Part shown: piece after piece, positions 7,678-57,802 of the stretch
How the letters are laid out: each line of letters begins with the position of its first letter
Numbering within the stretch: position 1 is the stretch's first letter
Origin: Deltaproteobacteria bacterium
GTDB taxonomy: Bacteria > Myxococcota > Myxococcia > SLRQ01
Length of the DNA: 62,814 nucleotides
Assembly (NCBI GenBank): GCA_029210625.1
Contig: JARGFU010000001.1
Coordinates: 6,992-69,805, forward strand
Direction: 5' to 3'
Program-made: the position numbers and the translations under genes
Notes under the pieces: model-generated
Databases searched by the model: none
Seen by the model: only the letters and a program-made list of their open reading frames with translations
What the model was told of the DNA's origin: nothing

Positions 7678-9125
7678 ACAATCGACGCGGCCCGCGCCTC
7701 GACCCGGGCGATGACCGCCTCGAAGGCCCGGCTGATCCGGGTCTGGTCGCGGATCATCGCCACCTTCGGCCAGGTCACCCGCTCCCCCTCCAGGATGAAC
7801 TTCTCGAAGTCGGCCAGGCTGGGGTTGGCGACGATCTTCCGCAGCATCGCCGGATCCACCCGGGGGTGGATGTTGATGTCCCCCACGTAGGGCTGGGCCA
7901 TCAGGTCGTGCAGCCGGCCCAGCCGCCGGCGGACGCGCTCGTTCTCGATGTAGCGGCTGGAGGCGCCGAGGATCGAGGCCAGGTGGGAGGTGGTCAGCTC
8001 GCTGGCGAGCGCCAGCCCGGCCTGGGCCAGGCTCTCCTGCTCGCTCTTGCCGGCGAAGAGGTACACGTGGGCGTTGGTCTGGCTGACGATGAAGTGGTTC
8101 ACGTTGTGCAGCCGCCCGACGCGAGCCATGGGCACGTCGCCGCCCACGCTGCCGTCGATCCACCGCTCCCGGGGCAGGTAGGGCACGGGCTCGCCCTCGG
8201 GACCCCGCGTCATCAGCATGGCGGGCTCGAAGAGGAAGGGCATGGCGCAGGAGACGGCCGCCGAGTAGGTGACCAGCAGGTCGGGCGCCGTCAGGTGGTT
8301 GAGGATCCGCGGCTTCTGCCGGCTGCGGGTCGGCGCGACCGAGATGTTCAGGACCCGGCCGGTCTTCGCGAAGGCCTCCGCGAAGGTGTAGTCGCCGCCC
8401 ATGTTCGTGCGGATGTGTTCGAGGAGCTGCTCGTGCCCGAAGAGCGACTTGTCCCGGGCGATCTGGCGCAGGCCCTTGAAGCGGACCGCCACCCGGTGGA
8501 CCTCCTCCGGGTGGGCGAACATCCGCGCGTTCTCCTCGTCGGTCCGGGTGCAGACCCCGGCGGCGACGATCGCCCCCATGCTCGAGCCCGAGATGATCGA
8601 GGGCAGGAGCCCCCGCAGGAAGAGGGCCTTCACCACCCCCAGGTGGTAGATGCCCAGGGTCGCGCCGCCAGAGAGCATCAGGGCCGAGCGGCCGAACTTG
8701 TGCTGGGCCTGGAAGAGGCGCTCGAGCTTGGCCTCGTCGGGCAGGCCGGTCCTCTTCTCGTCGGCCAGCCAGTTCAGCGCCCGGACGGCCAGCTCGAGGA
8801 AGCGCCGGGGCAGGTGCTTGGTCTCACCGCTGTAGGTCTCGCAGTAGAGGCGCGGGTTCAAGAGGTCGTGGTGGTGCTGGGTCAGCGCCTCCTCGAGGAG
8901 CTCGACCAGCGCCGGCGCGTCCTCCCGCGCGAGGCAGGACTCGAAGCGCGCGACGTCCTCCCGGATCACCTCGTGGTCGTAGTAGTTCGAGCGCTCGTCC
9001 TCGAGCCACGCGTCGTTGTGCTCGAGGGCGTCGAGGGTCTCCGCGGCGGCGAGCCAGTCCTCGTAGGTGAGCGCGGACTCCATCGCCCGCCGCGCCGCCC
9101 GCCGCTGCTTTCGTTCCGAGAACAT
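7674..9125 (-). CDS. Patatin-like phospholipase (DUF3336 N-terminal region plus patatin domain)
   Basis: Oxyanion and nucleophile motifs are present (GGATLGIYHLGV, ISGSSMGAIVAAG, GxSxG type). A downstream DG catalytic-dyad region is also visible. Confidence 0.8.
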   Translation of the reverse strand: MFSERKQRRAARRAMESALTYEDWLAAAETLDALEHNDAWLEDERSNYYDHEVIREDVARFESCLAREDAPALVELLEEALTQHHHDLLNPRLYCETYSGETKHLPRRFLELAVRALNWLADEKRTGLPDEAKLERLFQAQHKFGRSALMLSGGATLGIYHLGVVKALFLRGLLPSIISGSSMGAIVAAGVCTRTDEENARMFAHPEEVHRVAVRFKGLRQIARDKSLFGHEQLLEHIRTNMGGDYTFAEAFAKTGRVLNISVAPTRSRQKPRILNHLTAPDLLVTYSAAVSCAMPFLFEPAMLMTRGPEGEPVPYLPRERWIDGSVGGDVPMARVGRLHNVNHFIVSQTNAHVYLFAGKSEQESLAQAGLALASELTTSHLASILGASSRYIENERVRRRLGRLHDLMAQPYVGDINIHPRVDPAMLRKIVANPSLADFEKFILEGERVTWPKVAMIRDQTRISRAFEAVIARVEARAASIV

Positions 9126-9131
9126 CGCTGC

Positions 9132-10355
9132 TCAATAGCGCGAGACGCAGGTGCCCAGGGGGTCCTCGGCGAGCACGCCGGAGGAGAGGCGCACCTCGGC
9201 GCTGGTGGCGCACTCGGCCATCGCCGCGCCGGCGGTGTTGGTGCGCAGATCCCCGTCCGAGACGGTCAGGCTCGAGCCCTCGCGGGCGAGGATGCCGAGG
9301 CCCGCGTTGCGCTGCAGGCTGGCGCCGGCGACGCCGAGGGTGGAGGCGCCCCAGGCCTCGATGCCGTGGGAGCCGTTGTCCTCCAGGGCGAGGCCGTCCG
9401 CGCTGCCCGAGGTGCCGATCATCTGCAGGCCTCCGCCGTGGGCCTGCCGCACCGCCACGTCCTCCAGGGTCACGCCGGCGCCGTGGAAGAAGAGGCCCAT
9501 CCCGAGATCCCCCACCGAGTCGCCGGCTACCGTCTGGATCGTGACCCGCCGCAGGGTGGTCTCGCCCCGGAGCACCTGCACGCCCACGCCGGCGACGTTG
9601 CTGACCCGCAGGTCCTCGATCAGGGCCGGCACCAGCAGGTCGTTGGCCACGACCCCGCCGGCGGGCATCGGCCCCTCGAGGACGACGTTCTTCAGGGTGC
9701 CCGCCCCGCCCACCAGGCCCACCCCGGCCTGGGTCACGTTGCGCACGTCGAGGTCGTCGAGCTCCACCCGTCCGTCGGGGCGGGTGAGCAGCCCGTACTC
9801 GGCCTCGCGCGCCCGAAGCCGCAGGCCCGTGAGCGTACCGCCGGCGACGAAGTAGGCCGCCGAGGAGACCCGCTCGGCCATCGCGTCGGTGACCGTGGCC
9901 TCGCCGGCGATGAGGCGCAGCGCGGCCTCCGCGTCGTGCACGAAGAGCTGGGAGAAGGTGGCGTCGCCGGCCTCGATCCGGAAGGCCGCCCGCCCGCCGC
10001 TCACCTCGACCCGCTCGACGATGAGCGAGCCGAGGGAGACGACCGTGTGCTGCCGGTCGGCCCCCTGCAGCTTCAGGTCGCGCAGGATCACCTGCACCCC
10101 CGCGGGCACGACGAGCACGGGGCCGTCCGCCGGCGCCACCACGGTGGTCAGGGCGACGCCCGCCCCCTGGAAGAGGGTGTCCCCCTCGACGACCAGCGGC
10201 CCCTGCACCGTGCCCGCCGGGAGGTTGGCCTCGACGATCGGAGGGTCCGCGTCGGGCTCCGAGGGCTTGCTCGCGCAGCCCGAGCCGCCTCCGGCGCAGC
10301 TCGCCAGGACGAGGGCCGCCAGCAGGCCGCCGCCGGTCGCTCGCCAGGCGTTCAC
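9132..10355 (-). CDS. Lipoprotein with right-handed parallel beta-helix repeats
   Basis: Lipobox LVLASCAGG. Repetitive V/G-rich beta-helix-type segments throughout the sequence. Confidence 0.65.
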   Translation of the reverse strand: MNAWRATGGGLLAALVLASCAGGGSGCASKPSEPDADPPIVEANLPAGTVQGPLVVEGDTLFQGAGVALTTVVAPADGPVLVVPAGVQVILRDLKLQGADRQHTVVSLGSLIVERVEVSGGRAAFRIEAGDATFSQLFVHDAEAALRLIAGEATVTDAMAERVSSAAYFVAGGTLTGLRLRAREAEYGLLTRPDGRVELDDLDVRNVTQAGVGLVGGAGTLKNVVLEGPMPAGGVVANDLLVPALIEDLRVSNVAGVGVQVLRGETTLRRVTIQTVAGDSVGDLGMGLFFHGAGVTLEDVAVRQAHGGGLQMIGTSGSADGLALEDNGSHGIEAWGASTLGVAGASLQRNAGLGILAREGSSLTVSDGDLRTNTAGAAMAECATSAEVRLSSGVLAEDPLGTCVSRY

Positions 10356-47570: not shown

Positions 47571-48476
47571 ATGCCCGGTAGACACGTACTCCTCGTCGAC
47601 GACTCGGCCAGTGTGCGGGCCGTGCTCCGTCTGGAGCTCGAGACCCTGGGCTTCTTCGTCACCGAGGCCATCGAGGTGGAGGCGGCCCGGGAGGCCCTGG
47701 CCGCCAACGACGACATCGACGCGGTCCTCCTCGACTGGCACCTGCCGGGGACCAGCGGCATCGACCTCCTGCGGGAGTGGATGGCCCACCCCCGCTACCG
47801 TTGGATCCCGGTGCTGATGATCACCTCCGACGAGGACCCGGCCCGGATCCGGGAGGCCCTCTCCGCCGGCGCCGTCGACTTCCTCCACAAGCCGCCGGAC
47901 ACCCTCGAGCTCCACGCCCGCCTCTCCTCGGCCCTGCGGATCAAGGCGCTCCACGACGAGCTGCGGACCCTGGCGATGCACGACTCGCTCACCGGGCTGC
48001 TGAACCGCCGGGCGCTCGACTACCGGCTCGAGGACGAGATCTCCCGGGCGATCCGCTACGAGCGCGACCTCTCGGTGGCCCTGATCGACGTCGACCACTT
48101 CAAGCAGGTCAACGACACCCACTCTCACTCGGTCGGCGACCGCGCCCTCGTCCACGTGGGCTCCCTGCTCACTCAGGGCCTGCGGCGGGCCGACACCGTC
48201 GCCCGCTGGGGTGGCGAGGAGTTCATCGTCGTCCTCCCCGAGACCGGCCTGGAGGACGCCGTCCACGCCGTCGACCGTATGCGCCAGGCCCTGGTCGAGG
48301 CGCCCTGCATCTGTGGGGGCAAGGAGCTGCCCCTCACCTGGAGCGCCGGCGTCGCCTCGCTCTCCAGCCTCGAGGACAAGCACCCCTCCACCCTCGTCGA
48401 CGCCGCCGATCAGGCCCTCTACCGGGCCAAGGCCGCCGGGCGGAACCAGGTCGTGGGCGGCCGCGCCGAGGACTGA
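47571..48476 (+). CDS. Response-regulator diguanylate cyclase (REC plus GGDEF with intact GGEEF)
   Basis: VLLVDDSASVR. Asp in LLDWHLPG. RWGGEEF active site. RxxD I-site region. Confidence 0.85.
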   Translation: MPGRHVLLVDDSASVRAVLRLELETLGFFVTEAIEVEAAREALAANDDIDAVLLDWHLPGTSGIDLLREWMAHPRYRWIPVLMITSDEDPARIREALSAGAVDFLHKPPDTLELHARLSSALRIKALHDELRTLAMHDSLTGLLNRRALDYRLEDEISRAIRYERDLSVALIDVDHFKQVNDTHSHSVGDRALVHVGSLLTQGLRRADTVARWGGEEFIVVLPETGLEDAVHAVDRMRQALVEAPCICGGKELPLTWSAGVASLSSLEDKHPSTLVDAADQALYRAKAAGRNQVVGGRAED

Positions 48477-49396
48477 AGCCCGGGGCGCCGCATAGGCAGG
48501 AGCGTGAGGGCCAGGAGGTAGAGGCGATAGGGGCGCCCCTCGACGTCGATGGTCCCCTTCCCGCGGCCGGTGCAGAGCCGCCAGGCGAGCTTCTGGGAGA
48601 GGGCGACCAGGAGGCCCGAGCCGCTCCCGGAGAGCTCGAGGGTGCTGCCGATGATCACCATCGCGATCCCGAAGAGGGCCGTCGCGCCGTAGCCCACCGC
48701 GAGATCGAGGCGGCAGAGCTTCAGGTCCGCCTCGGTGCGGCCCTTCTCCCGGATCCAGTAGCCGTAGCAGAGGATGGTCACCGTCCCCCCGACCCCGCCC
48801 AGCAGCGCCACCGTCCAGGCGAGGCCCCCGTCGTCGAAGCGAGGGATCGAGGGCAGGAGGAGCCCCTCGAGCACCTCGCCGGTCCCCGGCCAGAGGCGCC
48901 CGGCGGTGAAGAGGACGATCACGAACATCACCCCGATGGTCACGCCCATCACCTTCTCGAAGAGGGCGAAGCCGCCTCGCCACACCAGCAGCAGGCCGAG
49001 GAGGCTGGAGGCGACGCCGAAGACCACCTTGCCGGCGGCCGCGCTCTCGAAGACCGGGAAGAGCGCGTGGAGGGTCACCCCGCAGGCGCTCATCAGGGCC
49101 GAGCCGACGAAGAAGGACCAGAGCAGCAGGTAGGCCAGGAAGACCCAGCCCACCCCGCGGCCGAAGCGGGTGATGGCGCCCTCGAGGGCCGTCTCTCCGG
49201 TGGCGAGCTGCCAGCGGGCGAGGCCCTCGTTGAGGACGAACTTCAGGGCGGCGCCCACCACCACCGCCCAGAGGATGGCCGTGCCCAGCTCGCTGCCGGT
49301 GAAGCTCGCCGTGGCGAGATCTCCGGCGCCCACCCCGGTCGCCGCGACCAGCAGCCCGGGGCCGATGAGGGTCAGGATTCCCAGCTTCTCTCTCAT
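48419..49396 (-). CDS. Nramp-related (COG1914-like) divalent-cation transporter, apparently truncated (~325 aa, 7-8 TM)
   Basis: ATG at 49394-49396. GPGLLVAATGVGAGDLATASFTGSELGTAILWA matches the Nramp TM1 region but lacks DPGN. The 3' end runs 58 bp into the convergent GGDEF gene and the final ~45 aa are low-complexity. Confidence 0.5.
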   Translation of the reverse strand: MREKLGILTLIGPGLLVAATGVGAGDLATASFTGSELGTAILWAVVVGAALKFVLNEGLARWQLATGETALEGAITRFGRGVGWVFLAYLLLWSFFVGSALMSACGVTLHALFPVFESAAAGKVVFGVASSLLGLLLVWRGGFALFEKVMGVTIGVMFVIVLFTAGRLWPGTGEVLEGLLLPSIPRFDDGGLAWTVALLGGVGGTVTILCYGYWIREKGRTEADLKLCRLDLAVGYGATALFGIAMVIIGSTLELSGSGSGLLVALSQKLAWRLCTGRGKGTIDVEGRPYRLYLLALTLLPMRRPGLQSSARPPTTWFRPAALAR

Positions 49397-49464
49397 GTCG
49401 TCCTCCCGCGATCCGGTTTCGCTGGTACCTGCGGGCGCCCCCCTGGAAACCCGTAGCGCTTTCT

Positions 49465-51553
49465 TCAGCGCCGGCGGCGCAGGCCACGGACGAGGAGGAG
49501 GAGGAGGAAGGAGGAGGCCCCCACGCCGGTCCAGATCCCCAGGCGGCTGCGGGGAGCGCGGCGGCGCTGAGCGACGACCACGACGTCGGTGCCCTCGACC
49601 GGGACGAAGGCCGCCAACCAGGCGCCTCCGAAGGCGGGGTCGGCGTCGGCGGCGGGATCCCGGTAGCGCTCGTCGACGCCGAGGCCGGGGGCGCCCTCCC
49701 ACCGCGCCGGGTGGGCCAGGGGCTGATCGTCCAGCCCGAAGGCCGGGTGGAAGAGCAGCACCCAGTCCGGCGGCTCGGCCGGCTCGTCGCCCACCTGGGT
49801 GGGGTCGACCCGGACGATGACGCCCGTCGCCGAGTCGCTCGGCTCGGTCTGCGGCAGGCGCAGGCCCTGGCTGGCGAGGACCCCGGCCACGATGACGCCG
49901 ACCGGCACGCCCTCGTGGAGGACGGCCCGGGCGATCCCGAGCTTGTACTGACGCGAGGTCAGGCCATAGAGCACCTTCGAGGCGTAGGCGCAGGCCCCGT
50001 CGCCCCGGGGCTGGCAGAGGCAGCGAGAGGTGGGCGCCGAGGCGCAGGCCAGCGCGCCGAGGACGTAGTCCCGCCGGCTGAAGTCCCAGCCCTCGTGGGC
50101 CTCGAGGCGGTGGGGCCAGCGCGCGACCAGGGCCCCCTTGCGGTCCACCAGCCACCAGCTCTCGAAGGGGGACTCTCCGTCGAGGTCGTTGAGGCGAGCG
50201 CCGGCGATCACCGTCAGGCGCTGGACCTCCTCGAGGTCTCCCGCGGCGAGCGCCGCGCCCAGCCCGGGCGTCCCGGCCGCGGCGTCGGCGGCGCTGGCGA
50301 ACTGCAGCAGGCGGATCCGCACGGTGTCCGCCTGGTGGCGGGCGAGGTCGAGCTGGATGTGCGCCGGCTCCCTCGCGAGCTCGAGGACCTGGAGCGTCAC
50401 CAGCACCGCCGCGAGGGTGAGGAAGGCCAGGGCCAGCGCGCTCGCCGTCGCCAGCAGGGGGTTGCGGCGGCGCCAGGCCGCCAGGCGCTCGCGGGAGGAC
50501 CAGAGGCGAGCGTGCGGCTGCGCGCCCTCGAGCCAGCGCTCGAGATCGTCGGCGAGGTCCTCGGCCGTGGGGTAGCGATCCTCGGGCGCGTGGGCGAGGG
50601 CCTTCAGGCAGATGGCCTCGAGGTCGGCGTCGACCCCGGGGTGCGCCTCGCAGGGCGAGGCGGGCCCGCTCTGCGCGAACCTTCTCCAGGGTCTCCCGGC
50701 GGCTCTCGCCCAGGTGGGGCGGGCGGCCGCAGAGCGCGTGGTAGAGGACCGCACCGAGCCCGTGGACGTCCGAGAGGCTGGTCTCCTCCCGCTCGGGGTC
50801 CGCCTGCTCGGGGGACATCCAGGCCGCCGTGCCCACCACCCCTCCGCTCGTGGCGCGCGACTCCAGGGGCTGCTCCTCGCCGCTCACCCGCTTGGCCAGG
50901 CCGAAGTCGGTGACGTAGGGCCGGCCGGCGGGCCCCAGGAGGATGTTGTCCGGCTTCAGGTCGCGGTGGAGGAGGCCGCGCTGGTGCGCGTGGTGGACCG
51001 CCCGCGCGACGTCCCGGACGACGGCCACCCGCTCACGGACCTCGCCCTCCTCGGGCTGCTGCCAGTCGCCCAGCGTCCCCCCGTCGATGAGGTCCATCGT
51101 GAAGTAGGGGCGGTCCTCGTGCAGGGCGACCTCGTGGACCCGGATGATGTTCGGGTGCTGGAGCCGGGCCATGTTCTCGGCCTCGGCGAAGAAGCGCTCC
51201 TCGGCGACCCGGAGCACGTGGGGCAGGCTGATCTTCAGGGCCACGAAGCGATCGAGGCTCTTCTGTCGCGCCCGGTAGACCACGCCCATCCCGCCGTGGC
51301 CGAGGTACTCGATGCCCTCGTAGTCCCCGAAGTCGGGGAGGGTCAGGGGCACCTCCTCGGGTACCCAGGCCGGCAGCTCGAGGAAGGCCTCGGCCGTCGC
51401 CTCCCCGTGGCTGACGAGGAGGGCCTCGACCTCGGCGGCGAGCTCGCCCTCGTCCCGGCGCAGGGCCGCGAGGGCCTCGGCCCGCTCGGGCGGCTCGAGC
51501 TCGAGCAGCCCGGCGAAGCGATCGCAGACCTCCTGCCAGCGCTCGGGGCTCAT
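49465..51553 (-). CDS. Hanks-type Ser/Thr protein kinase with TM helix and periplasmic sensor domain; apparent +1 frameshift near 50630-50760
   Basis: Kinase domain in one frame from ATG 51551-51553 (GHGGMGVVYRA, HRDLKPDNILL, DFGLAK, SPEQ). The conserved PEDRYPTAEDLADDLERWL tail, the TM helix and the sensor domain are in a second frame (track ORF 49465..50754). The junction lies in a ccccgggg run. Confidence 0.7.
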
Positions 51554-52128
51554 GGCGTCCCCTTGAGCTGGCGGTGGAGCCAGGCCCGGGCGACCTGCCA
51601 GTCCTCCTCGCAGGAGGAGACCGAGACCTCGAGGGCCTCGGCGATCTCGCTCCACTTCAGACCGCCGAAGAAGCGCAGGGTGACCACCTCGTGCTGACGC
51701 GGGCTCAGGGCCTTCAGGGTGTCCATCGCCTCAGCCAGATCGAAGACCGAGAAGCGCAGGCTGCTCTCCAGGGCCTGCAGCACTCCGTCGAAGGGGACCC
51801 GATCCCGGGCGTCGGGGCGCTTGCCCGCCGCTCGCTTGCGGGCGTGATCGATGAGGATCTGCCGCATGGCCCGGGCCTGGGTGGCGAAGAAGTAGGCGCG
51901 ATCGATCACCGGCAGGGGCGCCTTCACGAAGACCCGCAGGTAGGCCTCGTGCACCAGGGCCGTGGGCTGGAGGGTGTGCCCCTCCCGCTCCCGGCGCATG
52001 AGGTTGCCCGCCATCCGCTTCAGCTCGTCCGAGACCAGCGCGAAGAGCTCGCCCTTCGCCTTCTGGTCGCCGCCGCGGATGGCCGCCAGCAAGCGCTCGA
52101 TCTCGCCTCGTCTGCTGCTCTCCCCCAT
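51550..52128 (-). CDS. ECF sigma factor of the kinase-associated type (TIGR02999/Sig70_X6-like)
   Basis: EGHTLQPTALVHEAYLRV and LIDHARKR motifs. Stop overlaps the kinase ATG (ATGA). Confidence 0.85.
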   Translation of the reverse strand: MGESSRRGEIERLLAAIRGGDQKAKGELFALVSDELKRMAGNLMRREREGHTLQPTALVHEAYLRVFVKAPLPVIDRAYFFATQARAMRQILIDHARKRAAGKRPDARDRVPFDGVLQALESSLRFSVFDLAEAMDTLKALSPRQHEVVTLRFFGGLKWSEIAEALEVSVSSCEEDWQVARAWLHRQLKGTP

Positions 52129-52197
52129 CGCCCGCCCCCCCCGATTACCCCGTCGGGGGCGGGAGCGGTAGCCCGGCCTCGGCGCCGGCGCGCCGGA

Positions 52198-53277
52198 TCA
52201 GGCGACGACACGCAGGGGCCTCCCGGCGCGGCTCGGTCGCGCCCGCCAGCAGCCGGGGTCGGCGTGGTAGGGGCTGCCGTGGGCGGCCTGGGAGAGGCAG
52301 CGCAGGCCGCCGCCGCAGACCCTGGCGTGGAGGCAGCCCTCGCAGCCCTCGGCGTTGCGCTCCGGCTCCCGCAGCTCCCGCAGGAGCGGGCTCTGGTAGT
52401 AGAGCTCCGTCATGCTCCGGGAGCGCAGGTTCCCCACCGGCAGGGGCATCCGGCGGCAGGGGACGAGGGTGCCGTCGGGCAGCACGGTCAGCAGGCTCTT
52501 GCCCGCCGTGCAGCGGTAGGGACGCTCGCCGCCCTCCAGGAACTGCAGCGTGCGGTGCATGGCGATCTCGGGCGGGAAGATCAGCCAGCTCTTTCGCATG
52601 AGCTCCTGCGTTCGCCGCATCGATCGGAGGAAGCGGCGGGTCTCCTCGGGGGCGGGGCTGCGGAGCCCGCCGACGCTTCCCTGCCCCTCGGGGATGAGCC
52701 GGTCGGCCCAGACCCGATCGACCCCCAGCCGCTGCCCCAGCCGCGCGACCTTCCGGAACTCCCCCAGGTTCCCCGAGTGGGCGGTGAAGGAGAGGAAGAC
52801 CCGGATCCCGTGTCCGAGCAGGTGGCGGATGCCCCCGACGCTCTGCGCGTGACTCCCCTTGCCCCGGATCTCGTCGTGGACCTTCCGGCTCCCCTCGATG
52901 CTCACCTGCACGAAGCTCGGCCGGAGGGCCCGGAGGCGCGCTGCCCGCTCCTCGTCGATGAGGGTGTCGTTGGTGAGGAGAGCCCAGGAGTGCCGGTGGC
53001 GGTGACGGGCCAGCTCCTCGCAGAGCTCGAGGAGATCCTTGCGGGCGAAGGGCTCGCCGCCGGTGAGGGTGACGTGGCCTCGCAGCTCCGGCTGCCCGCG
53101 CTCCTCTCCGTAGCGGGTGAGCAGCTCGTGGTACTGCTCCAGGATCCGCAGCAGGTCCCGGTAGGGGAGCTCCTCGCCGCGGTAGCCCTCCTGGTAGCAG
53201 TGGTGGCAGCGCAGGTTGCAGCGCTCGGTGAGGTGCCACTGGAGGAGGAGGCCGGACTTGTAGTCGTGGTTGCACAT
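52198..53277 (-). CDS. Radical SAM/SPASM-domain enzyme (peptide-modifying maturase class)
   Basis: ATG at 53275-53277. CNLRCHHC (CxxxCxxC) inside LLLQWHLTERCNLRCHHCY. C-terminal 7-Cys SPASM cluster (CTAG...CRRM...CEGCLHARVCGGGLRC). TGATG coupling to the upstream gene. Confidence 0.85.
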   Translation of the reverse strand: MCNHDYKSGLLLQWHLTERCNLRCHHCYQEGYRGEELPYRDLLRILEQYHELLTRYGEERGQPELRGHVTLTGGEPFARKDLLELCEELARHRHRHSWALLTNDTLIDEERAARLRALRPSFVQVSIEGSRKVHDEIRGKGSHAQSVGGIRHLLGHGIRVFLSFTAHSGNLGEFRKVARLGQRLGVDRVWADRLIPEGQGSVGGLRSPAPEETRRFLRSMRRTQELMRKSWLIFPPEIAMHRTLQFLEGGERPYRCTAGKSLLTVLPDGTLVPCRRMPLPVGNLRSRSMTELYYQSPLLRELREPERNAEGCEGCLHARVCGGGLRCLSQAAHGSPYHADPGCWRARPSRAGRPLRVVA

Positions 53278-53771
53278 CAGCCGCACCCCCCACAGCCGCC
53301 GCAGCCGCCGCAGCCCCCGCCGCAGCCACCTCCGCAGCCCCCACCCCCGTTCACGCTGACGGCGAAGGCCGCCTGCACCGAGGCGCCCACCGCGAGGAGG
53401 CCGACCCCGTGGACCGCCACCGCCAGCGCCGGATCGACGCCCGCGCTCGCCCAGTCGATGGAGGAGCTGGCGCTCATCCAGCGTAGCTCCTCCCTCAGGT
53501 GCTTCAGCAGCCGGCGGCCCAGGGTGGTCGCCTTCCCGGAGGTGGGCCGCAGGATCCCGGCGAAGAGGTAGGCGGTCCCCGCCAGGAGGAAGGGGAGGAT
53601 GCCCATCGGCCGGTCGAGCGTCAGGCCGAGGAGCGCCTTGATCGACCCGAGGAGCAGGCAGACCGTCATCGGCAGGTAGGTGATCCAGGCCGCCCGCTGC
53701 TCGTCCGCCGCGCTCTGCAGCAGCCGGCGCTCCACGAGGTCCTCGCGGACCCTCGAGAGGGTGTCCTCCAC
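53277..53771 (-). CDS. Membrane protein segment (3 TM) ending in a pure Gly/Cys tail NGGGGCGGGCGGGCGGCGGCGGCG; in frame with the 53856..54149 ORF across a TAG
   Basis: Read from GTG at 53771 to TGA at 53277-53279. TM helices ITYLPMTVCLLLGSIKALLGL, ILPFLLAGTAYLFAGIL, ALAVAVHGVGLLAVGASVQAAFAV. Tail is 23 residues of G/C only. Confidence 0.6.
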   Translation of the reverse strand: MEDTLSRVREDLVERRLLQSAADEQRAAWITYLPMTVCLLLGSIKALLGLTLDRPMGILPFLLAGTAYLFAGILRPTSGKATTLGRRLLKHLREELRWMSASSSIDWASAGVDPALAVAVHGVGLLAVGASVQAAFAVSVNGGGGCGGGCGGGCGGCGGCGGCG

Positions 53772-53855
53772 CCGCAGCTCGAGGTGGGCGCTCGAGAGCA
53801 GGGCGCCGGGCCCCTCGATCCCGTCCTCGATGAGGTCGACCAGGTCCTGCTCGAT

Positions 53856-54149
53856 CTAGGGGGAGGGGCGCGGCCCGCCGGGGATCACCCGGGTCTGCTC
53901 GCCGTCCTCGCTGATCTCGAGCTGACCCCGCTCGACCATCCGGTAGAAGACGGCGCGGACCACCGCCTGCCACCCACCCCCCAGGTAGGCGATCGCCTCG
54001 GCGCTCAGCCCCTCGGCCGGGGGCAGCGGCAGGTCCTCGGTGCCGTCCCACCAGTGGAGGATCCGGTTGATCCCCAGCGCGAGGGCCACCAGGCCCAGGT
54101 AGACGAGGAGGAAGGTCGGTCCCGGTATCGAACGAATGAGCTCCAGCAT
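53856..54149 (-). CDS. N-terminal part (1 TM) of the same reading frame, ending at an in-frame TAG (53856-53858)
   Basis: ATG at 54147-54149 with AAAGGAGAG 6 nt upstream. MLELIRSIPGPTFLLVYLGLVALALGINRIL. Same frame as the 53277..53771 segment. Confidence 0.5.
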   Translation of the reverse strand: MLELIRSIPGPTFLLVYLGLVALALGINRILHWWDGTEDLPLPPAEGLSAEAIAYLGGGWQAVVRAVFYRMVERGQLEISEDGEQTRVIPGGPRPSP

Positions 54150-54211
54150 CGTGGTCTCTCCTTTCGAAGAGACCTGCGCGAGCTCTCCCGGAAATCCGTA
54201 GGAAGAAGCGG

Positions 54212-54238
54212 TTGACAACTTGGCCATGTTGCCACATG
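54212..54238. promoter_or_regulatory. Operator/promoter TTGACAACTTGGCCATGTTGCCACATG in the divergent region (candidate ArsR/SmtB site)
   Basis: Imperfect palindrome CAACTTGGCCATGTTG embedded between -35-like TTGACA and -10-like hexamers. A near-identical copy lies at 54592..54618. Confidence 0.55.
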
Positions 54239-54265
54239 AATCGTGCGTCTCACTCCGGAGAAGCC

Positions 54266-54562
54266 ATGCCCTGTTCCGACGACAAGGTCTTCAAGCAGCA
54301 AGCGCGGGTGCTCAAGGCCCTCGCCAACGCCTCGCGCCTGAAGATCGTCGACCGGCTCTCCCGGGGGGAGTGCTCGGTCGGAGAGCTCACCGAGCTGGTC
54401 GGCTCGGACCGCTCCACCGTCTCCAAGCACCTCGCGGTGCTGCGCAGTCACGGGATCGTCGAGGACCGCCGGGAGGGCAACGTCGTCTACTACTCGCTCC
54501 TGACGCCCTGCGTGATGAACTTCTTCTCCTGTGCCACCCAGGTCCTCGAGGAGCGCAGCTGA
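54266..54562 (+). CDS. ArsR/SmtB-family metalloregulator
   Basis: HTH region LKALANASRLKIVDRL...ECSVGELTELVGSDRSTVSKHL. Carries Cys residues N-terminally (MPCSDD) and C-terminally (CVMNFFSC). Confidence 0.85.
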   Translation: MPCSDDKVFKQQARVLKALANASRLKIVDRLSRGECSVGELTELVGSDRSTVSKHLAVLRSHGIVEDRREGNVVYYSLLTPCVMNFFSCATQVLEERS

Positions 54563-54591
54563 TGGTCCCCGCGGTTTTTTTTGAGCCAATA

Positions 54592-54618
54592 TTGCCAACT
54601 TGGCCATATTGCCATGCA
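54592..54618. promoter_or_regulatory. Second operator copy TTGCCAACTTGGCCATATTGCCATGCA, upstream of the permease gene
   Basis: 20/23 positions match the 54212 site, with the same TTGNCA...TTGCCA framing. Confidence 0.55.
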
Positions 54619-55811
54619 CTTCCGGCGAGGGCCTCCCGGTGAAGGAGCGAAGCAAGCTGCTGCTCATGCTGGCGGTCTTCGCCGCCTGCTGGTTCCTGCC
54701 GGTGGACAGCGAGCGCTTCCTGTCGGCGGTCGGCGAGGGCCTGAAGCTCACCCGGTGGTACGCCCGGGAGCACGTGCTGCTCTGCCTGGTGCCGGCCTTC
54801 TTCATCGCCGGCGCCATCAGCGTCTTCGTCAGCCAGGGCTCGGTGATGAGGTACCTCGGCCCGGCCGCGAGGAAGCTCGTCGCCTACCCGGTGGCCGCGG
54901 TCTCCGGCACCATCCTGGCGGTCTGCTCCTGCACGGTGCTGCCCCTCTTCGCGAGCATCCACCAGCGCGGCGCCGGCCTCGGCCCGGCCACCGCCTTCCT
55001 CTACTCCGGGCCGGCCATCAACGTGCTGGCGATCATCCTCACGGCGCGAGTGCTGGGCCTCGAGCTGGGCATCGCCCGCGCGGTCGGGGCGATCACCTTC
55101 TCGGTGATCATCGGCCTGCTCATGCACCTCTTCTTCCGCAAGGAGGAGGCCGCCCGTCAGGCCGAGGGCATGGTCCTGATGCCGGTCGAGGAGCGGGGCC
55201 GGACGCTCTGGCAGGAGGGCGTCTACTTCGCCGCCCTGGTCGGCATCCTGGTCTTCGCCAACTGGGGCGCTCCGGCCGAGAAGGACACGGGCGTCTGGAC
55301 CAGCGTCCACTCGGTGAAGTGGATCGTCACCGGCGGGTTCGCCCTCGTCCTCGTCTTCTCCCTCTGGCGTTGGTTCGAGCGGGACGAGCTTGGCGACTGG
55401 ACCGAGTCGAGCTGGACCTTCGCCAAGCAGATCATGCCGCTGCTCCTGGCTGGCGTGCTCGTCGCGGGCTTCCTGCTCGGTGGCCCCGATGGCGGCCGCG
55501 GCGTGATCCCCGACGAGTGGGTCGCCTCGATGGTGGGCGGCAACTCGCTGGGCGCCAACCTCTTCGCTTCGGTGGCGGGCGCCCTGATGTACTTCGCCAC
55601 CCTCACCGAGGTGCCCATCCTGGAGGGGCTCCGCAGCTCGGGCATGGGGAAGGGACCCGCGCTGGCGCTGCTGCTCGCGGGTCCGGCGCTCTCCCTGCCC
55701 AACATGCTCGTCATCCGAAGCGTGATGGGCACCCGGAAGACCCTGGTGTTCATCGGGCTGGTGATCGTGCTCTCAACCCTCGCAGGTCTGCTCTACGGAG
55801 CGCTGTTCTAG
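54600..55811 (+). CDS. COG0701/DUF318-type permease (the two-CPxC-motif permease commonly found in ArsR-linked clusters)
   Basis: 8-10 TM helices. AVCSCTVLPLF motif. Start uncertain: TTG 54600, GTG 54639 or ATG 54666. Confidence 0.8.
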   Translation: MAILPCTSGEGLPVKERSKLLLMLAVFAACWFLPVDSERFLSAVGEGLKLTRWYAREHVLLCLVPAFFIAGAISVFVSQGSVMRYLGPAARKLVAYPVAAVSGTILAVCSCTVLPLFASIHQRGAGLGPATAFLYSGPAINVLAIILTARVLGLELGIARAVGAITFSVIIGLLMHLFFRKEEAARQAEGMVLMPVEERGRTLWQEGVYFAALVGILVFANWGAPAEKDTGVWTSVHSVKWIVTGGFALVLVFSLWRWFERDELGDWTESSWTFAKQIMPLLLAGVLVAGFLLGGPDGGRGVIPDEWVASMVGGNSLGANLFASVAGALMYFATLTEVPILEGLRSSGMGKGPALALLLAGPALSLPNMLVIRSVMGTRKTLVFIGLVIVLSTLAGLLYGALF

Positions 55812-55820
55812 GAGGTCGTG

Positions 55821-56069
55821 ATGAAGGTCGAGATCCTGGGAACCGGATGTGCCAAGTGCCAGAAGCTCTACCGGCTGGTGGAGCAGGCCGTCGCCGACAC
55901 CGGCTCGGACGCCGAGGTGGTGAAGGTCGAGAAGATGGACGAGATCATGAGCTACGGCGTGCCCTTCACGCCGGCCCTGGTCATCGACGGTACCGTGAAG
56001 TCGGTGGGCAACCTCCCGAAGCCCGCCCAGCTCGAGGCCTGGCTCCGGGAAGGCGCGGGCCAGCGCTGA
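55821..56069 (+). CDS. Thioredoxin-fold redox-active disulfide protein 2-like small protein (CxxC)
   Basis: ATG with GGAGG 6 nt upstream. MKVEILGTGCAKCQKL. Confidence 0.85.
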   Translation: MKVEILGTGCAKCQKLYRLVEQAVADTGSDAEVVKVEKMDEIMSYGVPFTPALVIDGTVKSVGNLPKPAQLEAWLREGAGQR

Positions 56070-56076
56070 AGCGCCG

Positions 56077-56784
56077 ATGCTTGACGAGCTGGTTCAGAAC
56101 GCGGGTCAGTACATCGACACGAACCCGTGGCTCGCCATCGCGGCGGTCTTCGTCGGCGGCCTGCTGACGGCCTCGAACCCCTGCGTCCTCGCCATGATCC
56201 CGCTGACGATGAGCTTCGTGGCCGGCCGGCGGGAGGAGAGGCCCGGGGTGCTCCGCGCGCTCGGCTTCTCCTCCGTCTTCGTCCTGGGGCTCTCCCTCAC
56301 CTTCACCGCGCTGGGCATGGTCGCCGCGCTCGCCGGCCAGCTCTACGGCGACGTCTCCAGCGCCTGGAACTGGGTGGTCGCCGCCGTCTGCGGGGTGATG
56401 GGGCTCCACCTGATGGGCGTGGTGACCGTGCCCATCCCCTCGCTGGCCGGCCGGATCCAGCCGAGGACCCGCGGCCTGCTCGGCGCGCTGATCCTCGGCC
56501 TGCTCTTCGGGCTGGTCTCCGCGCCCTGCGCGGCGCCGATCCTCGTCGTCCTGCTCACCTACCTGGCCGGCTCGGGCGCCTCGGTGGCGTACGGCGGCCT
56601 GCTGCTGCTCGTCTACGCCCTCGGCCACAGTCTGCTGATCCTCATCGCCGGCACCTCCATGGGCGCCGCGCGCACCCTCATCGAGAACAAGAAGATGACC
56701 GGGACCCTGGCCATCCTGCGCAAGGGCGCGGGCGTCGTGATCGTCCTGGTCGGGCTCTACTTCGGCTATCGAGGTCTGTCATGA
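56077..56784 (+). CDS. CcdA/DsbD-family transmembrane thiol-disulfide electron transporter
   Basis: Two conserved TM Cys residues (TASNPCVLAMIP and VSAPCAAPIL). 6 TM helices. Confidence 0.85.
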   Translation: MLDELVQNAGQYIDTNPWLAIAAVFVGGLLTASNPCVLAMIPLTMSFVAGRREERPGVLRALGFSSVFVLGLSLTFTALGMVAALAGQLYGDVSSAWNWVVAAVCGVMGLHLMGVVTVPIPSLAGRIQPRTRGLLGALILGLLFGLVSAPCAAPILVVLLTYLAGSGASVAYGGLLLLVYALGHSLLILIAGTSMGAARTLIENKKMTGTLAILRKGAGVVIVLVGLYFGYRGLS

Positions 56785-57197
56785 GATTCACCGCTCCCCT
56801 CCTCGCCCTCCTCGCCCTCACCGCCGCCTGTAACGAGCCGGTGTCTCTCTCCCGACCCGCCGCGCCGGCTGAGACCGCCGCGCCGGCCGAGGCCGCGACC
56901 CCCCGCCAGGTGGTCAAGCGGGTCGTCTTCGTCGGCAAGCAGGGCGCCTGCGACTGCACGAAGGCCAAGGTCGAGGCGAGCTGGGCGGCCCTGCAGCAGA
57001 CGCTGGGCACCCCGGCGAAGCTGCCGGTGGAGAAGCTGCAGATCGACGTCGACGGCCCGCAGGTCGCCTTCTACCAGCAGCAGAAGCCGATCCTCGCGCT
57101 CCCCGCGATCTACCTCATCGACGAGACCGCCACCGTCGTCGAGTTGCTGCAGGGCGAGGTCACTGCCGACCAGCTCACCGCCGCCCTGAAGCACTGA
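56781..57197 (+). CDS. Lipoprotein with a CxC motif (ACDCTK), ATGA-coupled to ccdA
   Basis: Lipobox LLALTAAC. 138 aa. Confidence 0.55.
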   Translation: MRFTAPLLALLALTAACNEPVSLSRPAAPAETAAPAEAATPRQVVKRVVFVGKQGACDCTKAKVEASWAALQQTLGTPAKLPVEKLQIDVDGPQVAFYQQQKPILALPAIYLIDETATVVELLQGEVTADQLTAALKH

Positions 57198-57204
57198 GGG
57201 GGGG

Positions 57205-57322
57205 CGAACCCTCCGGGTTCGGGCGCCTTTTTGGCGCTGCAAAAACGCGCGTGCGGCCAACGGCGAACCCTTCGGGTTCGGGCGCCTTTTGGGCTGTGCC
57301 AAAAACGCGCGTGCTGCCAACG
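57205..57322. repeat. Two tandem ~59-bp repeats, each with a CGAACCC-loop-GGGTTCG hairpin followed by GGCGCC-TTTT(T)-GGCGC
   Basis: Units 57205..57262 and 57263..57322 are about 90% identical. Hairpin plus T-run resembles an intrinsic terminator for the upstream + operon. Confidence 0.7.
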
Positions 57323-57398
57323 GGTAATCGGCCCCTTCCGCCCGAACAGGACGCCCGCCTGCGCCCGCCGTGCGGAGGTAGGGCCGCCCTAAGGTAGA

Positions 57399-57432
57399 AC
57401 GCCCGCCCGATCGAGGTAGATCGGGCGGGCGT
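57399..57432 (-). terminator. 14-bp perfect-stem hairpin immediately 3' of tRNA-Lys on the minus strand
   Basis: acgcccgcccgatc-gaggta-gatcgggcgggcgt. No U-tract. Confidence 0.5.
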
Positions 57433-57436
57433 CCTG

Positions 57437-57509
57437 TGAGGGCGGAAGGAATCGAACCTTCAACCTATGGATTAAGAGTCCATTGCTCTGCCAATTGAGC
57501 TACGCCCCC
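57437..57509 (-). tRNA. tRNA-Lys (anticodon CTT)
   Basis: Manually folded cloverleaf. Anticodon loop CTCTTAA. T-loop GGTTCGATTCC. No encoded CCA. Confidence 0.85.
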
Positions 57510-57528
57510 GTATGGGGATGATCTGGAG

Positions 57529-57602
57529 GGTGACCAGAGGGGATTGAACCCTCAACCTCCGGAGCCACAGTCCGGCGCTCTGCCAATTGAGCTATGGTCA
57601 CC
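57529..57602 (-). tRNA. tRNA-His (anticodon GTG) with encoded G-1
   Basis: Loop CTGTGGC. Extra 5' G pairs with the discriminator C, as is typical of tRNA-His. Confidence 0.85.
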
Positions 57603-57635
57603 ATAGCTTCGTATTCGTCTTTTTGGTGGCGCCAG

Positions 57636-57709
57636 TACGCCAGGAGGGACTCGAACCCCCGACCAGCGGCTTAGAAGGCCGCTGCTCTATCCACCTGAGC
57701 TACTGGCGC
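57636..57709 (-). tRNA. tRNA-Arg (anticodon TCT)
   Basis: Loop CTTCTAA. Cloverleaf folds with one G-U pair in the acceptor stem. Confidence 0.85.
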
Positions 57710-57728
57710 ATCCTATTCGTTTTTCTTG

Positions 57729-57802
<74 letters not shown>

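Follow-up and report, generated by a model that had tools for sequence, protein, structure and literature searches.

PMC9144182 cites ArsP, ArsE, ArsF and ArsG as organoarsenical resistance proteins and refers to the work of Chen, Rosen and co-workers, in which ArsP is a methylarsenite efflux permease and ArsE, ArsF and ArsG are associated with roxarsone and nitarsone. We analyzed an arsR locus on a 62,814-base stretch of contig JARGFU010000001.1 from a Deltaproteobacteria bacterium, which is referred to as the window and in whose numbering coordinates are given unless a related locus is named. The locus resembles the arsP and arsEFG genes in combining an ArsP_1 permease that has a Cys-Ser-Cys (CSC) motif with an ArsE-family thioredoxin. 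Its regulator resembles the ArsR/SmtB repressors, such as the R773 and chromosomal E. coli ArsR, SmtB, CzrA and CadC, in its winged-helix fold of ~100 amino acids (predicted here), in an imperfect palindrome of ~22 base pairs (bp) that overlaps the -35 box and spacer of its own promoter, and in conserved cysteines that are candidate sensors. A third likeness is to the envelope pathways formed by CcdA and ResA/StoA in Bacillus and by CcdA and Etrx lipoproteins in Streptococcus pneumoniae, which also consist of a cytoplasmic thioredoxin, CcdA and a lipid-anchored extracytoplasmic thioredoxin-fold protein.

We propose, with a probability of about 0.72, that the locus is an autoregulated ArsR switch of the arsenic-resistance kind, in which a second operator serves an operon for ArsP-type efflux and a thiol relay. 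Judging from the sequences compared, the layout recurs in many uncultured bacteria and appears to be an ordinary kind of metal(loid) switch. The operator consensus and the two-promoter wiring diagram that we derived for this ArsR clade are testable.

Two operators and their conservation

Two 23-mers read from the sequence, TTGACAACTTGGCCATGTTGCCA at 54212-54234 and TTGCCAACTTGGCCATATTGCCA at 54592-54614, were found by a repeat search to be direct repeats with 21/23 identity and a spacing of 380 nucleotides (nt). Each contains an unstranded 22-bp imperfect palindrome. Operator 1 (54213..54234) has the halves TGACAACTTGG and CCATGTTGCCA, and operator 2 (54593..54614) has the halves TGCCAACTTGG and CCATATTGCCA; their overlapping 14-nt arms are 86 and 79% complementary, respectively. 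The consensus of the pair consists of TGnCAAC-TTGG in the left half and CCAT-nTTGCCA in the right half. When the whole window was searched for CAACTTGGCCATNTTGCCA with up to three mismatches, the only two forward matches were exactly operators 1 and 2, and a third match was site 1 read in reverse; the expected count was 0.01, and three matches were reached in 0/100 shuffles. Operator 2 starts 31 nt past the arsR stop codon and ends 24 nt before the permease start codon, within an intergenic gap of 76 nt. Directly 5' of it, a conserved CAAT(A/G)T element (54587-54592) may be an extra half-site. Both sequences had been quoted in the first-pass annotation, and reading confirmed that they exist, but the end coordinates given there (54238 and 54618) overshoot by 4 nt. 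The same annotation had proposed that ArsR has two near-identical palindromic operators, one at its own promoter and one before the permease gene, and this proposal is borne out by relatives in different phyla, where the same positions are kept.

These relatives were collected by a scan of one genome per species, which yielded 80 loci with an ArsR 70-90% identical to that of the window (81 loci with the window itself). They come from Myxococcota, Acidobacteriota, Eisenbacteria, Gemmatimonadota, Trueperaceae (Deinococcota), Fibrobacteraceae, Bdellovibrionota and others. A symmetrised weight matrix (27.9 bits of information) was made from the sites of the 80 other loci, the window being left out, and was used with a cut-off of 12 bits. 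It scores operator 1 at 36.0 bits and operator 2 at 35.0 bits, and the best site in the window outside the arsR locus scores 2.2 bits. Across the 81 loci (822 kilobases, kb), 137 of the 146 hits that reached the cut-off lie within 120 bp of arsR. The density is thus 7.0 hits per kb near arsR versus 0.011 per kb elsewhere, a 630-fold enrichment, and 395 kb of unrelated loci gave no hit of at least 12 bits. Among the 81 loci, an upstream site is present in 71, a downstream site in 45 and both in 43; in the relatives, the upstream site lies about 30-65 nt ahead of the start codon of arsR, and the downstream site begins 24-50 nt past the stop codon. The operator consensus of the clade is TG(G/A)CAA(C/T)nTGG in the left half and CCAn(G/A)TTG(C/T)CA in the right half. 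Its invariant columns are TG.CAA..TGGCCA..TTG.CA. The variable columns and the flanks have diverged, a pattern typical of a phylogenetic footprint and not of a generic repeat.

The 71 aligned upstream sites have the consensus cTTGaCaA..TGGCCAa.T.GCCA.AtacT, which can be read as a promoter: its TTGACA -35 box coincides with the left half-site, the operator fills the 17-nt spacer, and cATAcT forms the -10 box. The window has a perfect TTGACA for arsR at 54212-54217, formed by T54212 and the left half of operator 1. The candidate -10 box that follows 17 nt after it on the plus strand, CATGAA (54235..54240), is weak in comparison with the cATAcT of relatives, and reading the same strand located a GGAG Shine-Dalgarno sequence at 54257-54260. 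A consensus promoter and terminator scan of 53700-57500, with thresholds too strict for such sites, reported no sigma-70 promoter and no relevant terminator; the scanner was silent because CATGAA is weak. Of the promoter-like hexamers that the first-pass annotation saw around the operators, the perfect TTGACA thus stands, while the -10 box is poor, and it is conservation in other loci that supports a promoter.

A plus-strand run of eight T residues (T8, 54575-54582) that merges into TTGAGC (54581-54586) precedes operator 2 and is a candidate for either an UP-like element with the -35 box of the permease gene or the U-tract of a weak arsR terminator. A run of at least five T residues is found in 34/45 loci having the downstream site, usually ending exactly 10 nt short of the operator, and in the relatives it merges into a conserved TTGnnn hexamer. 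The downstream operator of the relatives typically ends 19-30 nt before the permease start codon. A permease promoter that leaves room for a Shine-Dalgarno sequence would consist of TTGAGC as the -35 box, an 18-nt spacer and CATATT, which lies within operator 2, as the -10 box. A hairpin of modest stability (at most -6 kcal/mol), which resembles a terminator, stops immediately short of the T-run in 15/34 of the relatives that have this run. The strongest argument for a separate promoter at operator 2 is that the downstream site is present in 31/39 loci in which a close permease homologue follows arsR after a gap, and in 0/10 loci in which the thioredoxin gene abuts arsR and the upstream site alone is retained. 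In two loci (L002 and L029), the operator travels with relocated operons far from arsR.

The ten loci in which the thioredoxin gene lies within ~10 nt of arsR (L032, L037, L038, L040, L044, L048, L050, L051, L053 and L062) belong mostly to Acidobacteriota-type metagenome-assembled genomes (MAGs) and have neither the permease gene nor a second operator; several of them continue with genes for ferredoxin-like or HgcB-like and other Cys-rich proteins. In another locus (L026, 5215-6285), the operator lies 781 nt upstream of arsR. The open reading frame between the two shares its frame with arsR, consists of a long low-complexity repeat of KANLA and SKSVA units and may be an N-terminal extension or an insertion.

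The regulator, its operon and arsenic genes in relatives

The arsR gene (54266..54562, plus strand) encodes a 98-amino-acid repressor of the ArsR/SmtB winged-helix family, as judged from matches to HTH_5 (PF01022, E = 1.7e-12) and NF033788 (91.5 bits, above the curated family cut-off of 55). Its nearest solved structures are ArsR-family proteins. An AlphaFold2 model with a predicted local distance difference test score (pLDDT) of 85 has helices at 5-19, 22-31, 38-45 and 49-61, strands at 65-70 and 73-78, and a last helix at 82-97. It represents the canonical alpha1-alpha2-alpha3-alpha4-beta-beta-alpha5 fold with the wing at 65-78. Three cysteines are conserved among the 81 proteins, namely Cys36 (79/81), Cys82 (81/81) and Cys89 (81/81), and Cys3 is variable. 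The model places Cys36 immediately ahead of helix 3 and puts Cys82 and Cys89 within the two opening turns of helix 5. In a register set by hand, Cys36 presumably stands one residue before the first Cys position of the helix-3 motif of R773 ArsR, which we take to be ELCVCDL. Trigonal S3 sites for As(III) arose independently in other ArsR clades, and the Cys36/Cys82/Cys89 triad would by analogy fit an S3 site for a trivalent metalloid. To our knowledge, the combination of Cys36 with Cys82 and Cys89 matches no described class of site. We flag this conserved three-cysteine arrangement as a candidate sensor distinct from the classical CVC type.

Assignment of the regulator to a persulfide sensor of the BigR/SqrR type was rejected: the NF040642 model gave 56.9 bits against a cut-off of 155, and in an alignment with SqrR (6o8k) the helix-2 Cys of SqrR faces Asp29 of the window ArsR; the cysteine pair of BigR/SqrR, one in helix 2 and one C-terminal, is absent. 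Scores with the equivalog models for BigR, CmtR, TsoR and others were likewise far below their cut-offs. No close relative of the window ArsR was found in a collection of 72,556 plasmids (identities under 47%), a look-up of its exact sequence returned no record, and a search for cultured-organism literature on this ArsR clade found none.

The gene that follows operator 2 (54639..55811, plus strand, GTG start) encodes a COG0701 permease of 390 amino acids that matches ArsP_1 (PF03773; 261 bits, cut-off 32.3). It carries the sequence AVCSCTV, which corresponds to the vicinal Cys-x-Cys pair in a transmembrane helix of ArsP permeases. Its scores with the equivalog models for SaoE (112.7 bits, cut-off 325) and SO_0444 (108 bits, cut-off 300) fall short of both cut-offs, and homologues 63-84% identical to it are present in many of the ArsR loci. 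The next gene (55821..56069, plus strand) encodes a cytoplasmic thioredoxin-like protein of 82 amino acids from the MTH895/ArsE family (Thioredoxin_3, 93 bits; TIGR00412, 98.3 bits, cut-off 62), with a CAKC active site (GTGCAKC) near the N-terminus. It is followed by a gene for a CcdA/DsbD-type membrane thiol-disulfide transporter (56077..56784, plus strand, 235 amino acids), which has Pro-Cys motifs in two transmembrane segments and matches DsbD_TM at 76.9 bits (cut-off 27.1). As an ArsG candidate this protein was rejected (45.7 bits, equivalog cut-off 200).

The last gene (56781..57197, plus strand) overlaps the ccdA stop by 4 nt and encodes a lipoprotein of 138 amino acids that consists of a lipobox with Cys17, a variable disordered linker and a minimal thioredoxin fold. 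Neither the Pfam nor the NCBIfam profile library gave a match, and its 196 homologues are essentially all unnamed or "hypothetical". Their alignment has an invariant A-C-D-C-T motif (Cys57 and Cys59). The AlphaFold2 model of the domain (pLDDT >94) has the order beta-alpha-beta-alpha-beta-beta-alpha with the CxC at the start of helix 1, and the matches listed by Foldseek are almost all thioredoxins or thioredoxin-fold proteins, including the C-terminal domain of DsbD, Etrx2 and SdbA. The protein therefore has the features of an extracytoplasmic thioredoxin-fold reductase, but with CxC instead of the canonical CxxC, and its redox activity is putative. It is not recognizable as a homologue of ArsF, since NF040494 gave no hit and BLASTP gave no alignment to an ArsF-family protein. 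Family-profile searches thus agree with the first-pass calls of ArsR, permease, thioredoxin-like protein, CcdA and lipoprotein, the last without a family match, and the family matches together with the lipoprotein fold support a role of the downstream genes as a module for handling thiols and metal(loid)s. If electrons flow outward, as we infer, the ArsE-family thioredoxin, CcdA and the lipoprotein would make up a complete cytoplasm-to-periplasm reducing relay.

The gene content of the relatives was determined by tblastn with defined queries. Two nearly exclusive layouts follow the arsR-permease-thioredoxin genes: ArsF and ArsG in 17 loci, and CcdA with the lipoprotein, as in the window, in 13, with one mixed locus. 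CcdA and the lipoprotein are always paired. ArsF and ArsG occur together in 18/80 loci and ArsA in 4-6. ACR3-like genes lie within 6 kb in 17/80 loci, often with a second ArsR that is ~40% identical, and a representative was confirmed with TIGR00832 (452 bits). Relatives with an ArsR 82-89% identical to that of the window carry the full arsR-permease-arsE-arsF-arsG set under the same operator. In L002, whose ArsR is 89% identical, an operator precedes arsE-arsF-arsG (ArsE, 111 bits, cut-off 62; ArsF, 97.9 bits, cut-off 60; ArsG, 292.5 bits, cut-off 200), and arsR, a second operator and the permease gene come after them. In L078, a 37.7-bit operator with TTGACA precedes arsD (119.8 bits, cut-off 90) and arsA, after which come arsR-trx-ccdA-lipoprotein and an ACR3-like gene that is distantly related (31% identical). 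Because the operator fronts arsE-arsF-arsG and arsD-arsA and roughly one locus in five has ACR3 close by, we assign the locus to an (organo)arsenical-type ArsR regulon; by its gene context, the clade is embedded in arsenic-resistance gene sets. The alternation of the two layouts also raises the possibility, which we put forward tentatively, that CcdA and the CxC lipoprotein functionally replace ArsG and ArsF, implying that ArsEFG-type modules would be transmembrane thiol-reducing relays. The unannotated family to which the lipoprotein belongs (196 homologues, no Pfam entry) could help to clarify the roles of genes of the ArsE/F/G type.

Two further proteins recur in the related loci. One of ~860-910 amino acids, with at least eight CxxCH heme-binding motifs and a C-terminal membrane domain, is encoded in L002 (5300-8041), L007 (7936-10749) and L029 (1735-4314); ahead of the L029 copy lie two weaker operator-like sites that overlap each other (17 and 22 bits), and the protein is a possible extra member of the regulon. 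The other is a Cys-rich protein of ~130 amino acids encoded between the thioredoxin gene and that for ArsF or CcdA in L012, L017, L022, L023, L029 and L033 (about 7500-9700), with motifs such as CCACSG, FPCSG and DGCPLRC and no NCBIfam match.

In the mechanism that we propose, the 98-amino-acid ArsR, presumably as a homodimer, would bind the 22-bp palindrome at two places. Bound at operator 1, it would cover the -35 box and spacer of the arsR promoter, resulting in autoregulation; bound at operator 2, it would cover the core promoter of the second unit, permease-thioredoxin-CcdA-lipoprotein, so that repression would occur by promoter occlusion in both cases. The inducer, a thiophilic species for which trivalent arsenic or an organoarsenical is the most likely candidate, would bind the Cys36/Cys82/Cys89 triad and release ArsR from both operators. 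From the induced operon, the permease would export the toxic species, and the cytoplasmic thioredoxin would pass reducing equivalents through CcdA to the periplasmic lipoprotein.

Divergent operon, flanking sequence and alternative readings

Upstream of arsR, a divergent intergenic region of 116 bp (54150-54265) separates it from a minus-strand operon, and the center of operator 1 lies 74 bp upstream of the start codon of the first gene on that side. This gene (53277-54149) encodes a TIGR04222 membrane protein with a Gly-Cys tail and has an in-frame TAG at 53856-53858. Read through the TAG, it gives one full-length domain match (profile positions 2-228 of 229, 102 bits, cut-off 43), and the TAG could reflect a pseudogene, an assembly error or read-through. 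A radical-SAM/SPASM enzyme gene (52198-53277) overlaps the stop codon of the Gly-Cys-tail gene by 1 nt and is followed on the same strand by genes for an extracytoplasmic function (ECF) sigma factor (51550-52128; TIGR02999, 192 bits) and a long Ser/Thr kinase, all within 48419-53277. A protein search found >1000 radical-SAM homologues at about 50-59% identity (E <= 1e-30). The neighbors of the closest (P0242, 59% identical) are a kinase, an unannotated protein of 315 amino acids and a protein that matches Sigma70_r2 faintly, and this arrangement points to a conserved module made up of the Gly-Cys-tail protein, the radical-SAM enzyme, the ECF sigma factor and the kinase. An intact TIGR04222-like protein of 318 amino acids, whose Gly-Cys tail ends in GGWGGGCGGGCGGGGGCGGGGGGCGGGGCGGCGGG, is encoded in a Desulfomonile tiedjei MAG (L140, 4042-4998; L141, 513-1469) directly upstream of a 55% identical radical-SAM/SPASM gene; judging from the >1000 radical-SAM homologues, the pairing is widespread. 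A metagenome scan with the radical-SAM protein returned distant relatives only (<=35% identity), with no ArsR, TIGR04222 gene or operator beside them, and is of no use as a reciprocal test.

The G+C content is 0.64-0.70 across arsR and the permease gene versus ~0.72 in the surroundings. Directly after the lipoprotein stop codon, a tandem duplication of ~60 nt (57203-57323) has 43-nt cores that are 88% identical and 24-nt cores that are 96% identical. Each copy has a GAACCC-TCC-GGGTTC dyad followed by GGGCGCCTTTT, and the duplication may represent a terminator present twice or a small repeat element. Four tRNA genes on the minus strand, Lys-CTT, His-GTG, Arg-TCT and Pro-TGG (57436-57802), are convergent with the end of the ArsR-controlled operon, and the G+C content dips to 0.62-0.65 there. 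An Rfam search found the four tRNAs and nothing more.

Several observations weigh against the proposed switch. With regard to its wiring, folding of 54525-54600 gave no significant hairpin at the T8 run (z = 0.04), and the -10 candidates are weak where the promoter scanner was negative; with regard to arsenic, the classical R773-type (CVC) As(III) sensor is replaced by a single Cys36 (GECSVGEL), the nearest equivalog models of the permease, though below their cut-offs, bear Cu/Zn or other-metal names, and tblastn detected no ACR3, ArsA, ArsD, ArsF or ArsG gene in the window, so that the arsenic assignment rests on the relatives. The lack of a hairpin, the weak -10 candidates at operator 2 and the short gap after arsR would suit a single transcript of arsR and the permease operon from the arsR promoter, with operator 2 acting as an internal roadblock or a second clamp, possibly looping with operator 1 over 380 bp. 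We consider this improbable, since the T-run and TTGnnn held in a fixed 10-nt register before operator 2 look like a promoter, a hairpin stands before the T-run in part of the relatives, operator 2 is missing exactly where the next gene abuts arsR, and the operator accompanies relocated operons away from arsR in L029 and L002. A dispersed generic repeat or a chance match, for which nothing speaks except the direct-repeat arrangement of the two copies, has a negligible probability: the 62.8 kb hold just two copies, the sites are arsR-linked with the enrichment given above, and position and palindromic columns are kept while the remaining columns diverge. In the window and the related loci, the sites therefore do not behave like a repeated element found throughout the genome, which the first-pass annotation had named as a finding that would undo its proposal. 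The annotation had also held that the same ArsR probably represses the divergent operon, which would make operator 1 a shared bidirectional operator for the TIGR04222/radical-SAM/ECF-sigma genes. Operator 1 does lie in the sole intergenic space for a divergent promoter, its left half reads TTGTCA, which is -35-like, on the minus strand, and the Cys-rich tail would be a plausible ligand for thiophilic metals. Bidirectional use is possible in the ArsR family, because L050 has an ArsF gene divergent from arsR and two weaker sites in the shared region. However, a TIGR04222 or radical-SAM neighbor occurs in 0/80 related ArsR loci, whose upstream neighbors are heterogeneous (37 divergent, 41 co-directional), and four homologous loci with the Gly-Cys-tail and radical-SAM pair, when scanned, had neither ArsR nor operator (best matrix score <10 bits). 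Reading of the minus strand behind TTGTCA found no acceptable sigma-70 -10 box at 16-18 nt, the TIGR04222 gene is interrupted by an in-frame TAG, and the ECF sigma factor and Ser/Thr kinase beside the module are more natural regulators. Autoregulation of arsR fully accounts for where operator 1 lies, since the TTGACA-overlapping geometry is found in 71/81 loci regardless of the upstream gene. On this comparative evidence, the divergent operon appears to be a chance neighbor and not a conserved member of the regulon, and we regard as improbable both a shared operator and the double duty that operator 1 would then have in this genome, in which a metalloid sensor of a previously uncharacterized Cys36/Cys82/Cys89 class also gates the divergent operon. 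If true, a thiophilic-metalloid sensor would switch on the maturation of a cysteine-rich membrane protein; such coupling of a radical-SAM maturase to metal sensing, attractive but unsupported, was what had looked novel, and its removal leaves as points of interest the operator consensus, the cysteine triad and the alternation of CcdA and the CxC lipoprotein with ArsG and ArsF.

The autoregulated two-operator switch could also respond to an inducer other than arsenic. The same architecture may sense another thiophilic metal, such as Cu(I), Zn, Cd, Hg or Ag, or a thiol-redox or persulfide signal, in which case the operon would serve metal efflux and periplasmic thiol repair. The nearest curated permease models, named "SO_0444 family Cu/Zn efflux transporter" and SaoE, point in this direction, and the literature on this permease family discusses its CSC motif as a ligand of (heavy) metals (bioRxiv 10.1101/2022.07.06.499078). 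A thioredoxin, CcdA and a periplasmic thioredoxin-fold protein also form a generic envelope reducing pathway, and the points against arsenic given above, namely the absence from the window of the five ars genes and the regulator without a CVC motif, would fit as well, together with the weak, sub-threshold matches of ArsR to BigR, CmtR and TsoR. In contrast, the same operator directly fronts arsEFG and arsD-arsA in relatives, where ACR3 is often nearby; the BigR score and the missing BigR/SqrR cysteines argue against persulfide; and three conserved cysteines would fit the trigonal S3 sites for As(III) of other ArsR clades. We consider a non-arsenic inducer unlikely and regard arsenicals as the somewhat better than even choice.

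Comparison with described systems

The switch departs from the classical ArsR in that the ELCVCDL site is lacking and Cys36 stands alone in that region. Its TGGCCA-core operator consensus presumably differs from the operators of SmtB, CzrA and the E. coli ArsR. Whereas the ArsR/SmtB layout is a single operon with arsR first, a second operator after the arsR stop codon would govern the structural genes here.

In comparison with the CcdA-dependent envelope pathways of Bacillus and S. pneumoniae, the lipoprotein has a C-D-C active site rather than CxxC and a minimal domain of ~90 amino acids, and the genes belong to an operon for efflux that is predicted to be ArsR-controlled, not to cytochrome c maturation or methionine-sulfoxide repair. 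In comparison with the arsP and arsEFG organoarsenical resistance genes, CcdA and an unrelated CxC thioredoxin-fold lipoprotein stand in the place of ArsG and ArsF. An earlier survey had found arsR and arsP-type genes in association with the same three redox components and held the same idea of a thioredoxin-like protein that feeds CcdA. The regulator clade, the operator and the lipoprotein partner were not defined in that survey, and most of its examples have arsC, which is absent here.

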